DNA of 64,000 nt from an uncultured delta proteobacterium (lineage in GTDB: Bacteria; Myxococcota_A; UBA9160; SZUA-336): assembly GCA_963704165.1 (NCBI GenBank), contig CAVPHD010000005.1, positions 224,001 through 288,000 on the forward strand, written 5' to 3'. Made by a program: the position numbers and the translations under genes. Each line of letters begins with the position of its first letter. Position 1 is the first letter of the stretch. This document shows, piece by piece, positions 1 through 32,576 of the stretch. The notes beneath the pieces are model-generated. The model made no database searches. It saw only the letters and a program-made list of their open reading frames with translations, and was not told the origin of the DNA.

Positions 1-2052
1 ATGCTGACGGGCCTGGAGGTGAACGACGACGTCTACATCGCGATGAAGTCGTACGACCAGGAAGGGGAGGAGTCGGTCCTCTCGAACGAGATCCGACTGC
101 CGGCCCAACCGCTCTGCGAGACGAGCGGCTGCAACGACGGCAATCCGTGCACGGTCGACACCTGCACCGCGAACGGCTGCACGTTCGACGCGTCCGCCCT
201 GCGCGGAACGGTCTGCAACGACGGCAACGCGAGCACGTACGGCGATGTCTGCGGCGCGAGCGGGATCTGCTCCGGCACGACCGGCCAGTGCAACATCGAC
301 GCGGACTGCGGCGCGTCGAGCAATGCCTGCGCAGGGCCGCGCGTCTGTTCGAATCACGTCTGCGTCGATGGCGCTCCGCGCGCGAACGGCACGAGCTGCA
401 GCGATGGGAGTGCGAGTACACGCTACGACGTCTGTGAGTCGGGAACGTGCCGCGGGTACGCCTGTGGAAGCGACTCCCACTGTTCCGACTCGGAGGGCTG
501 CAATGGCGTCGAGCGTTGCGTGAATCGAGTCTGCGTCGCCGGAACTCCGATGGTCTGCGGCGACGGAAACGTCTGCAATGGCACCGAGTCCTGCAGCCTA
601 TCGACCTGCGTCTCGGGCCAGGCGATGCAATGCCCGCTCGAAGGGGGCCCCTGCTTCGACTCCTTCTGCGATCCCGCCGAGGGATGCAGCGTCGAGGCCC
701 ATCCCGACGGGTCCACGTGCACGACCTCGGCGTCGAGTCTCGCGGGTCGGTGCGCGAGCGGACTCTGCATCGCCGACGTGTCTCCGCCCCCGGGCGGCGG
801 CGATCCGGTGGATTGTGACGCGGCGTATGGCCCGCCCACCGATGTCTACCAGGCGCTCGCCGGGTCGTCCGAAAGCACGCGCAGGATCGTCTGGTCCGCG
901 CCGCTGCACCCGATGGGCGCGCAGATCGACTACCGGGCGGAATTCGAGAACCGCTGGACGACGCTGCGAGCCTACCCGGATTCGTCGGACGGCTGCGAAG
1001 CGGTGTGGTCCGCGACTCTCACCGGACTCAAGTCGCGCGTGCGCTACGTCTACCGGGTGAGCGGCGCGTCCCCCGAGGGCCGTGTCTTCAGCGACTCGTT
1101 CGCACTCCGAGGCGGCCCCGCGTCGTCGCGCGATTCGGTCAAGTTCGCGTTCTTCGCCTCGAACGGTCTCGCCGCGAGCGCGCAATCGACTCGAGCGGCG
1201 AGCGTGCTCGCGCAGATTCGAAGCGGTGGCTACCCGCTCGTGCTCGGCGGCGGCGGTTTCGCGCTCTCGAACGAGGCGATCGCGTCCGGAGCCGCTTCCG
1301 ACGCGGACTCGGCGATTCGCGCCTGGAAGCAGCAGGCGAGCGCGGTCAGCGCGAACTCGATCTTCGCGCCGGTACTCGGCGACACCGAGGTCGAGAGCTA
1401 CGCGCACTCGGAGGACGCGGCTGACTACGCGGAGTTCATGTCCGCCGTCGGAAACGCCTCGCCGCCGGATCCGAGCTACTCGTACGACTTCGGCGGCGTT
1501 CATTTCGTCGCGCTGCATGCTCCGAATCTGGGCAGCCTGTACTCGCGTACGAGCGCCGGAGCCGCGAAGCTCGCCTGGCTCGACGCCGATCTCGCTGCGG
1601 CGCGGGCGAGCGGCGCGCGCTGGATCGTCGTCTACATGCACGTCGATCTGCTCTCGAGCGAGCGCATCGACGCGCTGTCGATCTCGGTTCGCAAGTCGCT
1701 CGGTGCGATCCTGGAGCGCCACGGTGTGAATCTCGTCCTGTCCGGCGAGGGCAACAGCTACGAGCGATCCAATGCGCTGCGCGGTCCGCTCGAGAGCCCG
1801 GTCGTCGGCCCCAAGTCCCGCCGGGTCGTGACCGCCCGAGACGGGATCGTTCTCGTGCGCGCGGGCTCCGGTGGTCGAACCGAGTTCGGCCGCTGGATCT
1901 TCGAGACCCCCCCCGACTGGTCGGCCGTGCGCAACAACGCGACGGCGGTGTACCTGGGCGTGACGGCCAACGGCAACTCGCTGGGCGTGGTCGCCTACGC
2001 CGTCGACGAGAACGGCTTGCGAAGCGTGATCGACGCCGTCGAGATGCGCTGA
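1..2052 (+). CDS. Secreted-type multidomain protein (probably 5'-truncated by the window): FN3-like end, Cys-rich repeats, purple acid phosphatase N-terminal domain and a degenerate metallophosphoesterase domain
   Basis: 683-aa ORF; repeats such as CNDGNPCTVDTC and CGDGNVCNGTESC; ATLTGLKSRVRYVYRV (PAP N-terminal domain); YSYDFGGVHFVAL, WLDADL, WIVVYMH and VNLVLSGEGNSYER follow the PAP layout. Confidence 0.75.
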   Translation: MLTGLEVNDDVYIAMKSYDQEGEESVLSNEIRLPAQPLCETSGCNDGNPCTVDTCTANGCTFDASALRGTVCNDGNASTYGDVCGASGICSGTTGQCNIDADCGASSNACAGPRVCSNHVCVDGAPRANGTSCSDGSASTRYDVCESGTCRGYACGSDSHCSDSEGCNGVERCVNRVCVAGTPMVCGDGNVCNGTESCSLSTCVSGQAMQCPLEGGPCFDSFCDPAEGCSVEAHPDGSTCTTSASSLAGRCASGLCIADVSPPPGGGDPVDCDAAYGPPTDVYQALAGSSESTRRIVWSAPLHPMGAQIDYRAEFENRWTTLRAYPDSSDGCEAVWSATLTGLKSRVRYVYRVSGASPEGRVFSDSFALRGGPASSRDSVKFAFFASNGLAASAQSTRAASVLAQIRSGGYPLVLGGGGFALSNEAIASGAASDADSAIRAWKQQASAVSANSIFAPVLGDTEVESYAHSEDAADYAEFMSAVGNASPPDPSYSYDFGGVHFVALHAPNLGSLYSRTSAGAAKLAWLDADLAAARASGARWIVVYMHVDLLSSERIDALSISVRKSLGAILERHGVNLVLSGEGNSYERSNALRGPLESPVVGPKSRRVVTARDGIVLVRAGSGGRTEFGRWIFETPPDWSAVRNNATAVYLGVTANGNSLGVVAYAVDENGLRSVIDAVEMR

Positions 2053-17179: not shown

Positions 17180-18405
17180 AGAAGAGCGAGTTCTTCCGCC
17201 GCGCGCGCACGGACCTTCCCGGTCCACTCGCGGGCTTGAGCGTTCTCGAGGCGACGACGACATGGGCCGGGCCGATGTGCGCATGCGTGCTCGCCGACTT
17301 CGGCGCCGATGTGATCAAGGTCGAGCTTCCGGGGGGTGAGGTCGCGAGACGGCTTCCGCCGACGCTGCCGGACGGCGAGCCGCCGCTCTCGTTCATGCAC
17401 GTGACCGCGAATCGAAACAAGCGCAGCCTGACACTCGATCTGCGCCGACCCGAGGGACGCGACGTCTTCCTCGCGTTGGCTGCGCGTGCGGACGTGGTGG
17501 TCGAGAACTTCCGCCCCGGAACGATGGCTGGATGGGGACTCGGCTACGAGCACGTGCGGACGGTTCGACCCGATACGGTGTACGTCTCGATCAGCGGATA
17601 CGGGCAGTTCGGTCGCGACAGCGAGCGCGCCGGGTACGACCCGATGGCGCAGGCCTCGAGTGGCTGGCTGTCGTTGAATGGCGAGCCGGACGGAGCGCCG
17701 GTGAAGGCACCGACCTTCATCGGCGACGACCTCGCGGGTCTGCACGGCGCGCTCGCGGCGATGGCCGCCCTTCGTCACCGTGATCGCACCGGTGAAGGAC
17801 AACACTGCGATGTGGCGTTGCAGGACGCGCTCCTCTTCCAGTCGAATGGCTACCCGATGCTCGCCGCGCTCGGCGTGCCGCTCCCGCGCATGGGCAGTCA
17901 GTTCGTAGTCGCGGCACCGGCGGGCGTGTACGCGTGCAGCGACGGATTCGTCATGCTCGGAGTCCTGCTCGATGCGCACTGGAGGACTCTCGCGGGCTTG
18001 CTCGGTCATCCCGAGCTGGCGACGCACGCCGACTACGCCACCACCATGGGCCGAGTCGCGCACCGCGCCGAGTTGAACGCCCTGGTCTCGGAGTGGGTCG
18101 CGGAGCTTCCGGTCGCGGACGTCGTTGCTCGCCTCGAGGTCGAGGGCCTTCCCGCATCACCCGTGCGCAGCTTCGCCGAGTCCGCAAGCGATCCGCACGT
18201 GCTCGAGCGCGACATGCTGCAGACGGTCGTGCTCGAGAACGGCCGACCGGCGCCCGTCGTCGGGCCGGCGACCAAGTTCTCTCGAACGCCGGTGCGCGTG
18301 CGTTCGGCTGCGCCGGCACTCGGAGCACACAACGACGAGATCCTGGCCGAGATCGGACTCGACGAGGCCGCGCGCGCGCGACTTCGCGACGACGGGATCG
18401 TCTAG
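17176..18405 (+). CDS. CaiB/BaiF family (class III) CoA transferase
   Basis: GPLAGLSVLE, ADFGADVIKVE, NRNKRS, ENFRPG, ISGYGQ, GYD; TTGA overlap with the upstream stop. Confidence 0.9.
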   Translation: MKKSEFFRRARTDLPGPLAGLSVLEATTTWAGPMCACVLADFGADVIKVELPGGEVARRLPPTLPDGEPPLSFMHVTANRNKRSLTLDLRRPEGRDVFLALAARADVVVENFRPGTMAGWGLGYEHVRTVRPDTVYVSISGYGQFGRDSERAGYDPMAQASSGWLSLNGEPDGAPVKAPTFIGDDLAGLHGALAAMAALRHRDRTGEGQHCDVALQDALLFQSNGYPMLAALGVPLPRMGSQFVVAAPAGVYACSDGFVMLGVLLDAHWRTLAGLLGHPELATHADYATTMGRVAHRAELNALVSEWVAELPVADVVARLEVEGLPASPVRSFAESASDPHVLERDMLQTVVLENGRPAPVVGPATKFSRTPVRVRSAAPALGAHNDEILAEIGLDEAARARLRDDGIV

Positions 18406-19199
18406 TCCCGCGCTCTCGTTCGGGTGAGGACGAGAGCCAACGCGGCGACACCAATCAGCGTCGTGGCCGGAGCCTCCGGCACGGCGACGATGGCGTCGAT
18501 CTCCGAGGCGTACGTGTCGTCCGCGGGCTGCCAGATCCGCACGTACTCGATCCAGGGCAGGTCGAAGTCCGCGAGGTCGATCCCGACGCCGCCGCCGGCA
18601 CCGGCGTACAGCGCCGCGATCTGCGCGGTGTCGAGCCCGACGAAGTCGGAGGCGTCGAGCGACGGATCGACCGGAAGCGTGAAGCGGGTCGGAATCGTTC
18701 CTCCCGCCGAGAACGGCCCCGTCGGGTCGCGATACGCGAGCGTCGGGAAGAGTGTGTCCGCGAAGATCCCGATGGCGTCGATCCAGAAGACGCCATCCTG
18801 ACTGAGCGAGATCCGCGCCGGCTCGCCGAAGACCACGCCGTCGGCGAGCCCGGTCTCGAAATCGATGCCGAGGAACGCGTTTCCGTAGATCAAGAGATCG
18901 ATCCCGAACGGATTTGCGGGATCGTCCTCGACGAGTCGGTCGAAGCGAACGATCAATTCGCCGCCGGCTCCGATCGCGACGACCTGCTCCGGGAGATAAG
19001 CTGCGTTGAACGGCGTGACGTCGCCGTCGTAGGGACCGTTCCCCGTCGAGCGCGCGGGCGCGCCGAGGGAGCTGAGCGGATCGTCCCACCCGAAGGGCAC
19101 GTTGCTGCCGGGCGTGTAGCTGACGACCTGCGTCGCGAACGACGAGGCGAACGCGGGATGCGCCAGTACGCAGAGCAATGAGAGGACGAGCATTCGCAT
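18402..19199 (-). CDS. Cobalamin-riboswitch-controlled PEP-CTERM-type surface protein, putative B12-binding
   Basis: Signal peptide MRMLVLSLLCVLAHPAFA; C-terminal VPEA, TM helix and basic tail (TRTRARD); AAAGGA RBS; lies downstream of the riboswitch. Confidence 0.8.
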   Translation of the reverse strand: MRMLVLSLLCVLAHPAFASSFATQVVSYTPGSNVPFGWDDPLSSLGAPARSTGNGPYDGDVTPFNAAYLPEQVVAIGAGGELIVRFDRLVEDDPANPFGIDLLIYGNAFLGIDFETGLADGVVFGEPARISLSQDGVFWIDAIGIFADTLFPTLAYRDPTGPFSAGGTIPTRFTLPVDPSLDASDFVGLDTAQIAALYAGAGGGVGIDLADFDLPWIEYVRIWQPADDTYASEIDAIVAVPEAPATTLIGVAALALVLTRTRARD

Positions 19200-19238
19200 G
19201 TGGATTCCTTTCTCGCGGCCGGAGAAGTTCATACCCAC

Positions 19239-19388
19239 GTGGAAGGCCGGTCTTCTGGCTCCCGGATCACTCTCACGCCGCGCCTTCCCAGGATCTCGCG
19301 ATCCCAGTGGCTTGCTCATGCGGCGCTCGTCCCCGGATACAGCGACGGGCTCGCGCCGGATTCCCACCGGCTTCCCGACACCTTCCAC
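19239..19388 (-). ncRNA. Cobalamin riboswitch (left-facing)
   Basis: Minus strand: GGGAAgccGGTGggAATCCGGC...CCC...CTGTA...GCCACTGGG...GGGAAGG...GAGCCAGAAGACCGGCC; closing pairing GTGGAAGG/CCTTCCAC. Confidence 0.9.
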
Positions 19389-19427
19389 GACTCTTGTCGG
19401 GCGAGTACTACGCCGTCGTCGACGGCG

Positions 19428-19450: not shown

Positions 19451-19481
19451 CGCGAGCGCGGCGGGTGATAACGATTCGCCC

Positions 19482-19640
19482 ACTCGGTGTCCGCGATGCG
19501 GACCAATGAGGGAAGGCCGTGAGAATCGGCCGCGGTCCCGCCACTGTGATGGGGAAGTCAGACCGAACGAAGCCACTGGGGAATGCCCTGGGAAGGCTCG
19601 GATCCGACGCTCGACCCCTGAGCCAGGAGACCTGCCGAGT
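19482..19640 (+). ncRNA. Cobalamin riboswitch (right-facing)
   Basis: AGGGAAggccGTGAgAATcggcc...CCCGCCACTGTGA...GCCACTGGG...GGGAAGG...GAGCCAGGAGACCTGCC; closing pairing ACTCGG/CCGAGT. Confidence 0.92.
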
Positions 19641-19682
19641 TTTCGGGACGATCGTCCCGCTCTCCGCGGAGGGAGTCACTCG

Positions 19683-21776
19683 GTGCAGAAGAGTCACTGG
19701 CGAATCGCGTGTGCTCCGGCGCTCGCACTCCTATTAGCGACGGCTTCGCGCGCTCCGGCCGGTGAGCTGTCGGAATCTCCCGACGATCCGTCCGCCTTCA
19801 CCACGGTGATCGATGCACGCGCGTTCGACGAGCGGTTCGCGACCGTCGAGGAGGTTCTCGGTCAGGTTCCCGGCGTGCGCGTGCGCCGTTTCGGCGGGCT
19901 CGGTTCCTCGAGCACGGCCTCGATCCGAGGGTCGAAGTCGGAGCAGGTTCTCGTCCTGCTCGACGGTGTACGGCTGAACAGCGCGCAGCTCGGATCGGTG
20001 GACCTCTCGACGATTCCGCTTCGCCAGGTCGAGCGAATCGAGGTGATCCGCGGCGGTGGCTCCGCGCGCTACGGCAGTGACGCCGAGGGGGGTGTCATCG
20101 CGATCACGACGCGCAAGCCCGAGAGCGAGGCGCTCGGAGCCGACGCTTCGTTCAGTGCCGGATCCCAGTCGACGCTGGGCGGAGACCTCGCGATCTCCGG
20201 GGGCGGTGAGCGGGCACGCGGGCTCGTGACCTACTCGCGCCTGCGCAGCGAGAACGACTACCGCTTCGAGATCGAGCCACCTCCACGCGGTGGTGGCGGC
20301 CGTCCGGGCACGGGAAGCGCCGCGGGTGGTGCGGCGACGCACACGAGGCTCAATGCGGACTTCGTCGAGAATGCGGGGCTCATGCGCGGGTCGCTCGAGA
20401 CCGGCCGTCACTCCAGCCTCGACGCCACGCTCGACCTCTACGAGAAGGACGGTGGCGAGCCCGGTGGAACCTGGGGCAAGCCGGTCGTCGACGTTCCCGA
20501 CGACGTGGTCTCGTGCGTCACGGCCGACGAGTCGTACCGCCGCGGCGTCGGACGTCTGGCGTGGAGTCACTCGCGCGCATTCGGAGGCTCGCTCTCGATT
20601 GCCGGCGCGCTCCGTTCCGAGGACTCGGAGCTCGACGATCCGGGCGGCGCGTGCGGATTCGTGTCGCCGATCGTGACCGGCGGACGCGATCAGGCCCACT
20701 CGAGCGAATCCGAATCGTCTCTCGAGGCGCGCTGGGTTTCGGGTTCGAAGCTCTTCGGTCCGCTCGAGCTCGGCGCGCGTGCCGGGTCGGGCATCCGATA
20801 CGCACGTGTCGATGCGTCGGAGTCGGACGTTCACCGCCGCACGACGGTGTTGATCTCGATCCAGCCCGAGCTCGCGCTCTTCGATCGAGAGCTTCGGCTG
20901 TTCCCGGCGCTCGGCTTCGAGCGCGCGGACACGAGCGAAGGCGAGGCTCGCAGGTCGGCCTCCCAGCCGATGGTGCCGGTCTCGCCGCGCGACGAGAACG
21001 CGTGGTTGCCCTCGGTCGGCGCGATCTGGCAGGTGGCGCCGGGACTGCGCGCGAAGGCGAACTGGAAGCGCGTGCTTCGCCGTCCGACCTTCACGGATCT
21101 TTTCCATCCCGACTGGGGGTTCATCCGCGGAAACCCCGAGCTGCTCTCGGAGCGCGGCTGGAACGCGGACGTCGGATTCGAGCTCGCGGGTCGCGGCTCC
21201 GGACCCCTCGGAGATCTGCGACTCGAGGCGGACGTGTTCCAGCGTGAGCTCGACGAGGGAATCGAGTGGGTGCTGAACGTGAACAACGCGTACATGCCCT
21301 TGAATACCGGCCCGTCGCGCGCGCGCGGCGTCGAGGTCGGGCTCGGCGCGACGCTCTTCGAACGCCTGCAGATCGGCGCGTCCTACACCTACACCGACGC
21401 ACGCTATCTCGGTGGTGGCAGCGACGCCGCCTACGAGAGCGGCGTCGAGCGGATCTTCCCGCACGTTCCCGAGCACGCGTACTCGCTGAATGCCGCAGTC
21501 GACCTCGGCGCGCTCGAGCCTTGGACGGAGCTGCGCTACGAGAGCGAGGTCTCCTACCAGGTCGGGCGCGCGACACTCTCCGACGACGCGCTTCAGATCG
21601 ATGCCGGCGTGATCCTCCGGCCGGAGCGCATGCGCGGCCTCGCGTTCCTGCCGTCGGGCGTGACGCTCTCGGTCGAGGCTTCGAACCTGACGGGCGAGCA
21701 GCGCAGTGACTCCCTCGGGCAGCCCCTACCGAATCAGACGCTCTGGCTGGTTCGTGTTCGCGGTGCGACGAGATGA
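19683..21776 (+). CDS. TonB-dependent receptor, BtuB-like (cobalamin uptake)
   Basis: Plug motifs QVPGV, SIRGSKSEQVLVLLDGVRLN, VERIEVIRGGGSARYGSDAEGGVIAITT; RRPTFTDLF, GNPELLSERG; GTG start after GAGGGAG; directly downstream of the B12 riboswitch. Confidence 0.88.
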   Translation: MQKSHWRIACAPALALLLATASRAPAGELSESPDDPSAFTTVIDARAFDERFATVEEVLGQVPGVRVRRFGGLGSSSTASIRGSKSEQVLVLLDGVRLNSAQLGSVDLSTIPLRQVERIEVIRGGGSARYGSDAEGGVIAITTRKPESEALGADASFSAGSQSTLGGDLAISGGGERARGLVTYSRLRSENDYRFEIEPPPRGGGGRPGTGSAAGGAATHTRLNADFVENAGLMRGSLETGRHSSLDATLDLYEKDGGEPGGTWGKPVVDVPDDVVSCVTADESYRRGVGRLAWSHSRAFGGSLSIAGALRSEDSELDDPGGACGFVSPIVTGGRDQAHSSESESSLEARWVSGSKLFGPLELGARAGSGIRYARVDASESDVHRRTTVLISIQPELALFDRELRLFPALGFERADTSEGEARRSASQPMVPVSPRDENAWLPSVGAIWQVAPGLRAKANWKRVLRRPTFTDLFHPDWGFIRGNPELLSERGWNADVGFELAGRGSGPLGDLRLEADVFQRELDEGIEWVLNVNNAYMPLNTGPSRARGVEVGLGATLFERLQIGASYTYTDARYLGGGSDAAYESGVERIFPHVPEHAYSLNAAVDLGALEPWTELRYESEVSYQVGRATLSDDALQIDAGVILRPERMRGLAFLPSGVTLSVEASNLTGEQRSDSLGQPLPNQTLWLVRVRGATR

Positions 21777-23545
21777 GTGCTGCAGCCGTCCTGCTCGCCG
21801 CGACGCTCAGCGTCGGCTCGGCCTCGACCGACACGCTGCTCGTCGATGCGTTCGCGCCCCCGGCACTGGAGTCACACCCGACCGACGCCGACCGCGCGTT
21901 CGTCGCCGCGTCGAGCAATGGCCCGGGCGTCTTCGAGCTGCGGATCGCGCCGGGGCAGTCGCTCGCCTACGTGGGCGCGTCGTATCTGCTCCCGGGGAAC
22001 CTGAACTGCACGGAGTCGGCGCCCTTCACGGTTCCGACGCTCGGAAACGTGACGCTCGAGCGCGGGACCGGCGCGAGCCGGGGCTGGATCACGACTTCGG
22101 GCTGCGAGCTCGCTTTGCCGTTCAACTGGGCGACCGGCGCCGGATGGCCGTTGCTCTACTCGTCGCAGAGCCGCACGTCGGTTCCGACCCGGCACACGAT
22201 CGCAGGCGCCTTCACGCGCTATCAGAACGGCGGCGGCGGCGCCTCGATCAGCTCGTTCAAGACCAACTTCACGAGCGCGGCGCTTCGGATCGGGAGCCGG
22301 CTGGTGGTCGCGACCTCGAACATCCATCAGGCGGGGTCGAATCCGGTCTGGAACCCCGGCACGGTGCTCTTCTTCGCGATCGACGATTCCGGGCCGACGA
22401 CGACCGTCGCGCCGGCGAGCCCGTTCTTCGCGATCACCTCGGAGCCGAACCCGGTCGCGCTGACCGAGCTCCCCGGTGGGCGCGTTGCGGTGACCAACGC
22501 GGGGATCTTCGATGCCGGCTTTCCTCCGCAGCTCACCGGCCGGGGCAGCATCGACGTGCTCGACGCGCAGACAGGACTCTTCGTCGGCTCGATTCCACTC
22601 GGAGCCGGCAATCCGGCGGGCCGTGGGCTCGCGCTCGATCCGACGAGTTCGGTCGCGGTCGCGGGTTCTGCGACGTTGCGCCAGCTGGTCGCGATCGACA
22701 TTCGCGGCATCGCGGCGCTTTCGACGGTCGCGGTCGATGCGCGCCTGCAGCGACCGTCGTGCAATGACGGCACGCCCGCGACCGCCGGGGGCGTCCCGTG
22801 TCTGCGTGAACGGGTGATCCGCGACGGCGCGAATCCGATCGTACTCCCGCCGCCACCGGGATCGAGCGGTCTCTACTCGTACGTCTCGCAGGTGCGCTTC
22901 GGCGCCTCGGGGGACTTCCTCGCCGCCACGTCGTACAACGACGGAGGCCTCGCGCTGCTCGCCTTCGACCCCCGGAACCTCTCGACGCCGCACCCGCTGC
23001 TCGCGTCGCGTTTCGGTGTAGCCCAGACGCTCGCCGCCACGGGCCCCGCCGGCGTGATCGGCGAGGAGTGCTGTCCGGGTCCGATGATCCTGCACGCGAA
23101 CAGCGGGGGAGGACTCGCTGGCGCGGATCTCCTGCTCGCGACCGCGAGCCCCAACGGCATCGTCGTTCGCGGGCACCTCGCCGGAGCCGTCACGTCCGCG
23201 ACCGGTGATCACGATGGCGACGGCGTCGAGGACGCGCTCGACGACTGCCCGGTCACTTCGAACGCCGCACAGACCGACTCGGGTGGACTCGCGACCCCGG
23301 TCCCCGATGGAATCGGCGACGCGTGTCAGTGCGGCGACTCGAGCGGCAACGGCATCGTCGATCTCGCGGACGTGGGCGCGCTGCGCTCGTTCCTGGCCGG
23401 CTCTCTGGGCGCGCTTCCCGCGCCGGAGAAGTGCGACGTCGGAGGCAGCATCGGCTGCGATCTCGAGGACTTCGTCCGGCTGAGTCGGGCGCTCGGGGGA
23501 CTCGCGCCCGGGATCGCGCATGTCTGCGGGCCGTTTCTCCCGTAA
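21773..23545 (+). CDS. Secreted beta-propeller-like protein with C-terminal TSP3-type repeat and dockerin-like domain
   Basis: Hydrophobic N-terminus; YncE-like NPVALTE...VAVTNAG...GSIDVLDAQT; DHDGDGVEDALDDCP...DGIGDAC; CGDSSGNGIVDLADV; ATGA overlap with the receptor gene. Confidence 0.65.
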   Translation: MSAAAVLLAATLSVGSASTDTLLVDAFAPPALESHPTDADRAFVAASSNGPGVFELRIAPGQSLAYVGASYLLPGNLNCTESAPFTVPTLGNVTLERGTGASRGWITTSGCELALPFNWATGAGWPLLYSSQSRTSVPTRHTIAGAFTRYQNGGGGASISSFKTNFTSAALRIGSRLVVATSNIHQAGSNPVWNPGTVLFFAIDDSGPTTTVAPASPFFAITSEPNPVALTELPGGRVAVTNAGIFDAGFPPQLTGRGSIDVLDAQTGLFVGSIPLGAGNPAGRGLALDPTSSVAVAGSATLRQLVAIDIRGIAALSTVAVDARLQRPSCNDGTPATAGGVPCLRERVIRDGANPIVLPPPPGSSGLYSYVSQVRFGASGDFLAATSYNDGGLALLAFDPRNLSTPHPLLASRFGVAQTLAATGPAGVIGEECCPGPMILHANSGGGLAGADLLLATASPNGIVVRGHLAGAVTSATGDHDGDGVEDALDDCPVTSNAAQTDSGGLATPVPDGIGDACQCGDSSGNGIVDLADVGALRSFLAGSLGALPAPEKCDVGGSIGCDLEDFVRLSRALGGLAPGIAHVCGPFLP

Positions 23546-31741: not shown

Positions 31742-31880
31742 GACGAGATCGGCGACACCGGGGAAGGCGTTTCCGGAGCGCGGGGATCGACACGAAGAGC
31801 CGCTGGCGCGTCACGCGACGCTGTAGTTTCCCACTCTCATGCGGTAGGCTGGTGAAATCGCCTCGGAGGGACCCCCCGTA

Positions 31881-32576
31881 ATGCTCATGCGGAAGTTGCT
31901 CGGATTCTGTACCCGGGCGCCAGCAGCGTTCGTCGCCTTGGCGCTGGGATTGGTCGCCCAGCCAAGCTTCGCATTGCCCGTCGTGTGCGAGCCGCCGGCT
32001 TGCGTCACCTGGGACTCCGGTACGAACGCCACCGGCAACAAGTACAGCTTCATCGCGTTGACCTACACGACGACGTGGACCGAAGCGGATGCGCTCGCGA
32101 AGGCGTCGCGTCTCTCCGACGGAAGCATCGGCCAGCTGGCGACGATCGCTTCCCAGGAGGAGCAGGACTTCATCAAGAACGCGGTGCTTCCGCCTACGGG
32201 AATCGGCGTGAACAAGAATCAGGTCTGGCTCGGCGGCAAGCAGGACGAGAATCAGTCCCCCTCCGCCGGCTGGAAGTGGCTGGTGAATTCCGAAGTGGCG
32301 CCGGAGGGTTGGGACTACCAGAACTGGACCTCGCCGGACGAGCCGAACGACGAGGGCGGCATCAACGAACGATTCCTCACGATGTGGGTTCACTACTACA
32401 AGAACGGTGGGGATTGGCGCGGCACCTGGAACGACGAGCGAGACGTCGCGAATCCCGCGTCGCGAATCATTGGAATGATCGTCGAGTGGTGCCAGCCGAG
32501 CGTTCCCGAACCTGGGACCGCGGCGCTCGTCATCGCCGGCCTGGGTCTGCTCTCGCTACGCCGCCGGATTCGCTGA
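31881..32576 (+). CDS. PEP-CTERM protein with C-type lectin-like domain
   Basis: Signal peptide; TWTEA...LATIASQEEQDFI...WLGG...YQNW...EPN...WND; C-terminal VPEPGTAALVIAGLGLLSLRRRIR. Confidence 0.88.
   Translation: MLMRKLLGFCTRAPAAFVALALGLVAQPSFALPVVCEPPACVTWDSGTNATGNKYSFIALTYTTTWTEADALAKASRLSDGSIGQLATIASQEEQDFIKNAVLPPTGIGVNKNQVWLGGKQDENQSPSAGWKWLVNSEVAPEGWDYQNWTSPDEPNDEGGINERFLTMWVHYYKNGGDWRGTWNDERDVANPASRIIGMIVEWCQPSVPEPGTAALVIAGLGLLSLRRRIR

Follow-up and report, generated by a model that had tools for sequence, protein, structure and literature searches.

A BtuH-like protein with a degenerate PEP-CTERM-type tail and its own cobalamin riboswitch in an uncultured delta proteobacterium

The closest described relatives of the protein considered here are the BtuH proteins (BtuH2, BT1956; BtuH1, BT1488; and the H-domain of BtuG1/BtuGH, BT1490), which have been described as gut-Bacteroidota lipoproteins with three predicted homologues in Firmicutes (PMC8941943; PMC13616437). 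BtuH2 and the BtuG1 H-domain are both reported to bind cobalamin (PMC8941943; PMC12751083), and in BtuH2 a two-metal site holding Ca and Na bridges to the phosphate of the B12 nucleotide loop (PMC8941943; PMC13616437), its ligands being given as N399, E406, D522, S582, and E584 (PMC13616437). Here, we analyzed 64,000 nucleotides from an uncultured delta proteobacterium (contig CAVPHD010000005.1, positions 224,001 to 288,000; this whole stretch is called the window below), in which a single-gene unit at 18402..19199 (-) encodes a 265-amino-acid BtuH-like protein with a PEP-CTERM-type tail. A preliminary description, made from the sequence alone, had likened this protein to BtuH, assigned it a riboswitch of its own, and proposed that it is an exosortase-anchored corrinoid scavenger. 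We infer, with a probability of about 0.72, that the BtuH-like protein is an exosortase-sorted cobamide catcher of the cell envelope that feeds the neighboring receptor. A search of titles and abstracts found no published account of BtuH-like PEP-CTERM proteins, with most subscription journals lying outside its coverage.

The gene and its riboswitch

The gene runs from an ATG at 19199 to a stop codon at 18404-18402 (-), which overlaps the end of a convergent open reading frame (ORF) at 18402-18405. Its GC content at codon positions 1, 2, and 3 (0.66, 0.49, and 0.87) matches expectation and thus supports a real gene, and every motif quoted in the preliminary description is present in the translation of 18402-19199 (-). 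A predicted Sec signal peptide occupies residues 1 to 18 (19146..19199, -) and ends in A-F-A, as judged from sequence and hydropathy with no dedicated predictor; the sole cysteine is at position 10, and there is no lipobox. The BtuH-like jelly-roll domain, delimited by the fold model and a profile alignment, spans residues 19 to 239 (18483..19145, -) and is acidic, with 31 D/E versus 7 K/R. It is followed by a degenerate PEP-CTERM-type tail (18405..18482, -) made up of VPEA, a predicted membrane helix (residues 245 to 263), and a basic end. The gene is single copy in the source genome and was found in all 11 of the other genomes of the same genus that were searched. Among 7,999 candidates scored, 463 homologues of the protein were recovered at an E value of ≤0.001, and the named close ones come from Myxococcota bins. 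Fifty-one genomes of the class gave a match, several of which were weak, tail-only matches that we excluded as homologues. In our family-model scans no Pfam or NCBIfam family covered the protein (a lone Pfam match, E 0.057, was dismissed as noise), and an Atlas search returned unnamed clusters only, the best at 0.93.

The riboswitch attributed to the gene is indeed its own. A cobalamin riboswitch aptamer (RF00174) at 19228..19400 (-) lies on the same strand and ends 28 nt 5' of the ATG; it scores 99.2 bits over model positions 1-189, compared to a gathering score of 31.5 bits. A second, divergent RF00174 aptamer (124.1 bits) lies at 19468..19653 (+), and these two are the only RF00174 matches in the whole source genome. 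In the aptamer heading the BtuH-like gene, and likewise in the orthologues of this aptamer, the first hairpin beyond the 5' stem is missing, with 2 nt standing where the model has 23 positions; the divergent aptamer keeps it. Since its own riboswitch would shut the gene off, production of the BtuH-like protein is likely limited to times of B12 scarcity, and low B12 would be expected to turn on both riboswitch units. A short hairpin at 19209..19226 (-), which abuts the ribosome-binding site, is a candidate expression platform. It has five pairs, with 90% of cells paired across 12 related sequences, and its covariation is weak, in that one pair shows a two-sided change (G-U) and 8 of 500 shuffles scored equally high. 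Searches at this unit found no terminator and no promoter consensus. With the hairpin placed next to the ribosome site and no terminator in evidence, translational control of the gene is plausible, albeit weakly supported.

A remote sister family of BtuH

To place the domain structurally, we used an AlphaFold model built from a 96-sequence alignment (mean pLDDT, 92.8). The resemblance to BtuH pointed out in the preliminary description reappeared in three structural searches, each of which put BtuH2 (7BIZ) and the BtuG1 H-domain (8BLW) on top; in 8BLW, the BtuH domain of BtuG1 makes up the C-terminal portion of chain B (PMC10404256). Foldseek returned only 8blw_B, 7biz_B, and 7biz_A at E values of ≤0.001. 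Full structural alignment ranked 7biz_A first (Z 13.2), then 8blw_B (Z 12.5), then PAPP-A (Z 10.3). An independent search of 48,161 chains gave 7biz_B (Z 13.1, root mean square deviation of 2.5 Å over 142 aligned residues, 22% identity) and 8blw_B (Z 12.5), followed by lectin and CBM32 modules at Z scores of ≤9.8.

These lower-ranking matches bring up a different reading, in which the protein is a lectin of the CBM32/F-type fold that binds exopolysaccharide or other glycans, for instance, to attach the cell to B12-producing partners. The next structural neighbors are fucose-, pectin-, and galactose-binding modules (Z 9 to 9.8); the galactose-binding-like domains of CBM32, F5/8 type C, and F-type lectins share a common beta-sandwich core with the model (Z 8 to 9.8), and PEP-CTERM systems have been linked to exopolysaccharide (PMC1569441). 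However, the matches to sugar-binding modules lie 3 Z units lower, at 8 to 18% identity, and the protein has about 80 extra loop residues and no match to any carbohydrate-binding Pfam family. BtuH itself was reported to show the same modest likeness to AlyQ, which was judged unrelated to B12 binding (PMC8941943), and a lectin would leave the near-universal riboswitch link described below unexplained. We therefore regard a lectin as very unlikely.

The relationship to BtuH is also visible in sequence profiles. A 101-sequence profile (A2) had a single match in the PDB, 8blw_B 434-499 (E 3e-4), which falls inside the BtuG1 H-domain (PMC10404256). When a profile of 212 nonredundant family domains was compared with one of 115 BtuH domains (hhalign), the two aligned collinearly from the first to the last strand (E 1.6e-8; probability, 95.5), while the best of 30 column-shuffled controls reached an E value of 0.043. 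The BtuH set comprised close relatives of BtuH2 only (58 to 100% identity), and the BtuH2 sequence was taken from a Bacteroides finegoldii record that matches 7BIZ over 103-593 and agrees with all 14 published residue numbers. That record (NZ_OY725920.1) is listed as a plasmid and carries the whole of btu locus 2, adjoined by integrases and tRNAs. The stretch singled out beforehand, SLGxxGG...DF...GNAF...EP, coincides exactly with the part that can be aligned to BtuH at the profile level.

Which parts of the BtuH2 pocket are kept can be read from the same alignment. The metal ligands N399, E406, and E584 align to N107, E126, and E233, which are conserved in the 212 family domains at 96% (N107), 60% E plus 17% D (E126), and 78% E plus 10% D (E233), and D148 is conserved at 80%. 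One of nine corrin or lower-ligand contacts, F401, has a counterpart, F109 (60% of the family). Several observations weigh against reading the protein as a cobamide binder of the BtuH kind. BtuH2 Q333, F334, Y475, H476, Y510, W511, W577, and L578 are without a conserved counterpart; S582 aligns to A231; and for D522 the only candidate is D148, placed by motif position and not by alignment. The PGQF, YH, and WGYxDN motifs, which hold most of BtuH2's unmatched contacts or D522, occur in none of the 212 family domains, compared to 114, 106, and 112 of the 115 BtuH domains, respectively. A PDB search with the single sequence found no BtuH, nor did profile A1 (close homologues) or the 48-sequence profile A4. 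In the reverse direction, the BtuH profile did not pick the BtuH-like ORF from the genome (E 29, rank 5), and it reached E values of <1e-3 for 7 of about 358 family domains searched, this protein not being one of them. Foldseek TM-scores to 8blw and 7biz are low (0.34 to 0.36), about 145 of the 222 residues of the domain superpose on BtuH, and BtuH has an N-terminal lipoprotein anchor, in contrast to the C-terminal PEP-CTERM-type helix seen here.

The domain is also shorter than that of BtuH (about 220 to 225 versus 281 amino acids), whose globular jelly-roll occupies residues 314-593 of 7BIZ. Missing from the present protein are the PGQF loop, the insert with His476, the region around Trp511, the Trp577/Leu578 loop, and the PKD stalk, and the family has conserved motifs of its own (TPF, DxxFPT, and YxGxxGG). 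Given that most of the corrin-contact residues of BtuH2 have no counterpart, the BtuH-like protein is a remote sister family of BtuH rather than BtuH proper, and membership in BtuH proper is ruled out by the pocket residues and the anchor. From these alignments, the pocket looks as though its phosphate side was kept and its corrin side was rebuilt or lost. The original assignment to a BtuH-type domain thus holds for the fold and the profile link, whereas the family is only remotely related and most BtuH2 corrin contacts are missing. Because those contacts are unmatched, B12 binding is argued mainly from gene context.

The absence of most corrin-contact residues also allows for an accessory role, in which the protein is regulated by B12 without binding the vitamin and serves, for example, as a Ca-stabilized scaffold or as a partner onto which the receptor, the propeller, or the pilin-like protein discussed below could dock. 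The main caution here comes from Bacteroides thetaiotaomicron, in which BtuL and BtuK2 are encoded in riboswitch operons yet were reported not to bind B12 (PMC12751083), so that riboswitch-controlled nonbinders are known. Protein-protein assembly is further suggested by dockerin-like repeat ends, which occur in 37 of 71 family ORFs of non-Myxococcota loci and also in the neighboring propeller. On the other hand, the retained residues correspond to ligands that, in BtuH2, hold the metals bridging to the B12 phosphate, and both of the closest folds are proven binders. Moreover, the gene has its own riboswitch, the domain is kept whichever importer adjoins it, and the comparison of BtuL with the family profile was not significant (E 0.14). 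Taken together, a nonbinding accessory is unlikely.

The same residues could alternatively belong to a B12-regulated binder of cobalt ions or of divalent metals in general, since the conserved positions are acidic metal ligands in a strongly acidic domain. Against this, the source genome (84% complete) has no CobN or CobS match and so no evident use for free cobalt, no histidine or cysteine is conserved among the tabulated positions, and the same ligands are reported to hold Ca and Na in BtuH2 (PMC8941943). We consider this the least probable of the explanations, with only a slight chance of being correct.

Neighboring genes and homologous loci

The divergent aptamer heads two genes. The first (19683..21776, +) encodes a TonB-dependent receptor with plug and barrel, whose best NCBIfam model is TIGR01779 (TonB-B12). 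At 152 bits the match is below the cutoff of 600, and the identification of this receptor as BtuB, which we consider likely, therefore rests on the riboswitch. The second (21773..23545, +) encodes a secreted beta-propeller of the WD40/YncE type with a C-terminal TSP3/dockerin-like region. It sits where BtuG sits in Bacteroides loci. The exported (here by prediction) BtuH-like protein shares with BtuH a cobalamin-riboswitch locus containing a TonB receptor and a propeller. The propeller fold is generic WD40/YncE (Z about 30 to many chains), BtuG is not listed among its top fold matches, and its profile shows no specific homology to BtuG2 (E 0.45). It belongs to an unnamed family of 87 homologues with many conserved cysteines, always adjoins the receptor in close loci, and is a candidate BtuG analogue.

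The source genome contains B12-dependent enzymes, with five matches to the methylmalonyl-CoA mutase family as well as MetH. Together with the absence of CobS and CobN matches noted above, and at 84% completeness, this suggests that the bacterium may depend on imported B12. The matches to MetH (C7:5577-6374) and a FecCD permease (C1:556062-556890) are each split over two reading frames, which may reflect frameshifts or indels from assembly; C7:1535-2160 holds an incomplete second MetH-like match interrupted by stops.

To determine how widely the family gene and the riboswitch occur together, we compared homologous loci at three distances. Both divergent aptamers are present in 16 of 17 close loci, the seventeenth of which ends at a contig end. 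We then examined the best 80 of 254 loci from GTDB, about ten of which overlap with the 17 close loci, using a riboswitch model derived from 23 aptamers that came from the window and its close relatives. A same-strand upstream riboswitch was found in 74 of these 80, with matches within 600 nt in 65 and scores of ≥30 bits in 70, and no match lay downstream of the family gene; three exosortase control loci had no match. Because the model includes the aptamers of close relatives, those loci match by construction, which does not apply to the Planctomycetota loci, where 58 of 61 have an upstream riboswitch. Four of the six loci without one have <500 nt of upstream sequence, and the other two are "Candidatus Omnitrophota" contigs of a single bin, whose 1.7-Mb genome has no RF00174 match.

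Twelve distant homologues (about 30% identity) at first seemed to speak against a link to B12, with a riboswitch in only one of 12 loci when 1.5-kb flanks were used. In longer stretches, however, 11 of the 12 have the Rfam cobalamin riboswitch on the same strand, at 3.6 to 6.6 kb upstream, and the stretch examined for the twelfth ends inside the receptor gene. A TonB receptor is present in at least nine of these distant loci and a BtuJ-like gene in at least three, both lower bounds set by the ORF filter. Although related loci are not independent of one another, the link between riboswitch and family gene spans at least two phyla. Loci L122 to L133 form a second subgroup, of the Myxococcota class, which has EN in place of the GN motif and riboswitch operons in the order BtuJ-like gene, receptor, propeller, and, last, BtuH-like gene, close to the layout in B. 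thetaiotaomicron. One distant locus (L123) has an extra cobalamin riboswitch at 531-826 (-), just 3' of the family gene.

The partner genes differ among these loci. Receptor and propeller accompany the family gene in 10 of the best 80 GTDB loci, none of them from Planctomycetota, while a pilin-like gene lies close by on the same strand in 64 of 69 clustered loci without receptor and propeller. These pilin-like neighbors, which occur among loci L046 to L115 (mostly from Planctomycetota), are of the prepilin type, with an H-X9-DG-like end in the one that was scored, and a look at 5 kb around the family gene revealed no TonB receptor in such loci. In the source genome, the pilin profile gave little more than matches to N-terminal prepilin motifs. 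Probes for DUF4465 and DUF4430 gave no match within 5 kb in the best 80 GTDB loci; a scan of 38 longer homologues turned up one fusion to DUF4465/BtuJ (P0238) and one to DUF4430 (P0257). In P0238 (841 amino acids), a single chain carries a BtuH-like domain together with another domain related to it and the DUF4465/BtuJ domain. P0156 and P0243 carry the BtuH-like domain C-terminal to what, by eye, is a propeller-like region, as in BtuG1/BtuGH; P0156, with its N-terminal region and BtuH-like domain, had no PDB sequence match. At an E value of ≤1e-10, the family comprises 1,009 clusters at 50% identity.

Two other families bear comparison. BtuJ/DUF4465 proteins (PF14717; 9FCT, 9I2L, and 9HMU) are likewise exported jelly-rolls, they meet the present family in the P0238 fusion and in shared operons of 3 of the 12 distant loci, and their B12 binders have been shown to work outside Bacteroidota (bioRxiv 2025.08.21.671476). 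The BtuH-like protein, in contrast, has no PF14717 match and no NTPAY-type motif, making it a separate family. LIC_13355 lipoproteins (NF033170) weakly match the homologue P0027 (E 0.0086), at 15 bits compared to a cutoff of 120, and appear as an Atlas cluster at 0.85; they do not match the BtuH-like protein, which is not a lipoprotein. The two families probably belong to the same wider superfamily.

Sorting tail, proposed mechanism, and implications

The tail of the BtuH-like protein reads V240-P-E-A, then a hydrophobic stretch (17-residue hydropathy of up to 1.94), and then RTRARD. The predicted signal peptide, the motif-helix-basic order, the many tagged proteins, the exosortases in the genome, and the single-gene unit all agree with PEP-CTERM/exosortase systems (EpsH, XrtA-type). 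VPEA, however, stands in place of the near-invariant Pro-Glu-Pro, and neither PF07589 nor TIGR02595 matches the protein itself. Among 119 listed homologues, 94 have VPEP, 8 IPEP, 3 APEP, and 3 LPEP, with 11 giving no pattern match, and a precomputed PF07589 match exists for just 7, so that the model misses most close homologues. When a profile of 19 PEP-CTERM-like tails was run against 32,514 ORF tails, the VPEA tail was the best match outside the training set, at a weak E value of 0.61. We conclude that a degenerate PEP-CTERM, which may still be cleaved, is the most reasonable interpretation of this tail. The preliminary description had read VPEA, rather than VPEP, as the sorting motif. VPEA is the sequence at V240, but it does not represent an alternative signal used by the family, because 108 of the 119 homologues carry xPEP and none carries VPEA; from this comparison, it is a private substitution of this copy. 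For the same reason, VPEA was ruled out as a new sorting motif.

The exosortase that such a tail calls for does occur in the genome. Three proteins match PF09721, two of them above the TIGR02602 cutoff, and the third is XrtH-like and below its cutoff. A pattern search found 19 other PEP-CTERM-like ORFs in the source genome. Besides the BtuH-like gene, the window itself holds another PEP-CTERM-like ORF, with a canonical VPEP, at 31848-32576 (+), which corresponds to C5:255848-256576.

Two points tell against exosortase sorting of this protein to the surface: the proline-to-alanine change may impair processing of this copy, and the final location of PEP-CTERM proteins is presented mostly as a proposal in the reports we drew on (PMC1569441; bioRxiv 2023.06.07.544157). 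They raise the possibility of a periplasmic cobamide binder, held in the inner membrane by its uncleaved helix and acting as a BtuF-like buffer fed by the TonB receptor, a reading that concerns location only and is compatible with binding. In keeping with this, neither riboswitch unit was seen to contain a gene for an ABC transporter or for BtuF, this copy has VPEA and not VPEP, and the PEP motif has been localized to the periplasmic side of the inner membrane, onward transit being a proposal (PMC1569441). BtuH proteins, however, are reported to be surface proteins (PMC8941943), relatives present the BtuH-like domain on stalks typical of extracellular proteins (InlB-B repeats, RTX repeats, or dockerin-like ends), and floc-formation data favor surface display of PEP-CTERM proteins (bioRxiv 2023.06.07.544157). 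A periplasmic buffer is thus unlikely, and we continue to favor an exosortase-sorted catcher of the cell envelope.

On this favored reading, the BtuH-like protein would be exported by Sec, and an exosortase would then cut it from its C-terminal membrane helix and reanchor it, presumably at the outer surface. There, a Ca/Na site of N107, E126, E233, and possibly D148 would clamp the cobamide by its nucleotide-loop phosphate, while family-specific loops, unlike those of BtuH, would cradle the corrin ring. The protein could serve as a vitamin reservoir that passes cobamide, probably transiently, to the TonB receptor and propeller. We propose a transient relay by analogy, because BtuH2 was reported to make no stable complex with BtuBG (PMC8941943). 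Compared with other PEP-CTERM proteins, the role suggested here is vitamin capture and not floc structure, and the control element is a cobalamin riboswitch instead of the sigma-54 PrsR site described elsewhere (PMC1569441), a site we did not search for here.

Tentatively, and at somewhat less than even odds, the loci may be read jointly as a large unnamed family of cobamide catchers, with the present protein as its type member, that kept the BtuH phosphate/metal clamp, acquired a different corrin cradle, and serve as an interchangeable front end. The remodeled pocket possibly prefers another cobamide or cobinamide; sorting would be by exosortase or by a dockerin-like tail, and the partner would be a TonB receptor in Myxococcota and a pilin-like protein in Planctomycetota. 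Were this so, it would point to a BtuB-independent uptake route.

Provided that it binds B12, as we infer, the BtuH-like protein likely helps the source bacterium and its relatives in other phyla scavenge the vitamin. Unlike BtuH, the family occurs in Myxococcota, Planctomycetota, and other non-Bacteroidota genomes, and the finding extends a known scheme rather than describing a new kind of system. Most PEP-CTERM proteins have no assigned function, and one such family would, if this reading is true, gain a defined small-molecule ligand. If cobamide is bound, environmental Myxococcota and Planctomycetota would be added to the bacteria with BtuH-like surface capture, which in their case would use another anchor and a remodeled pocket.

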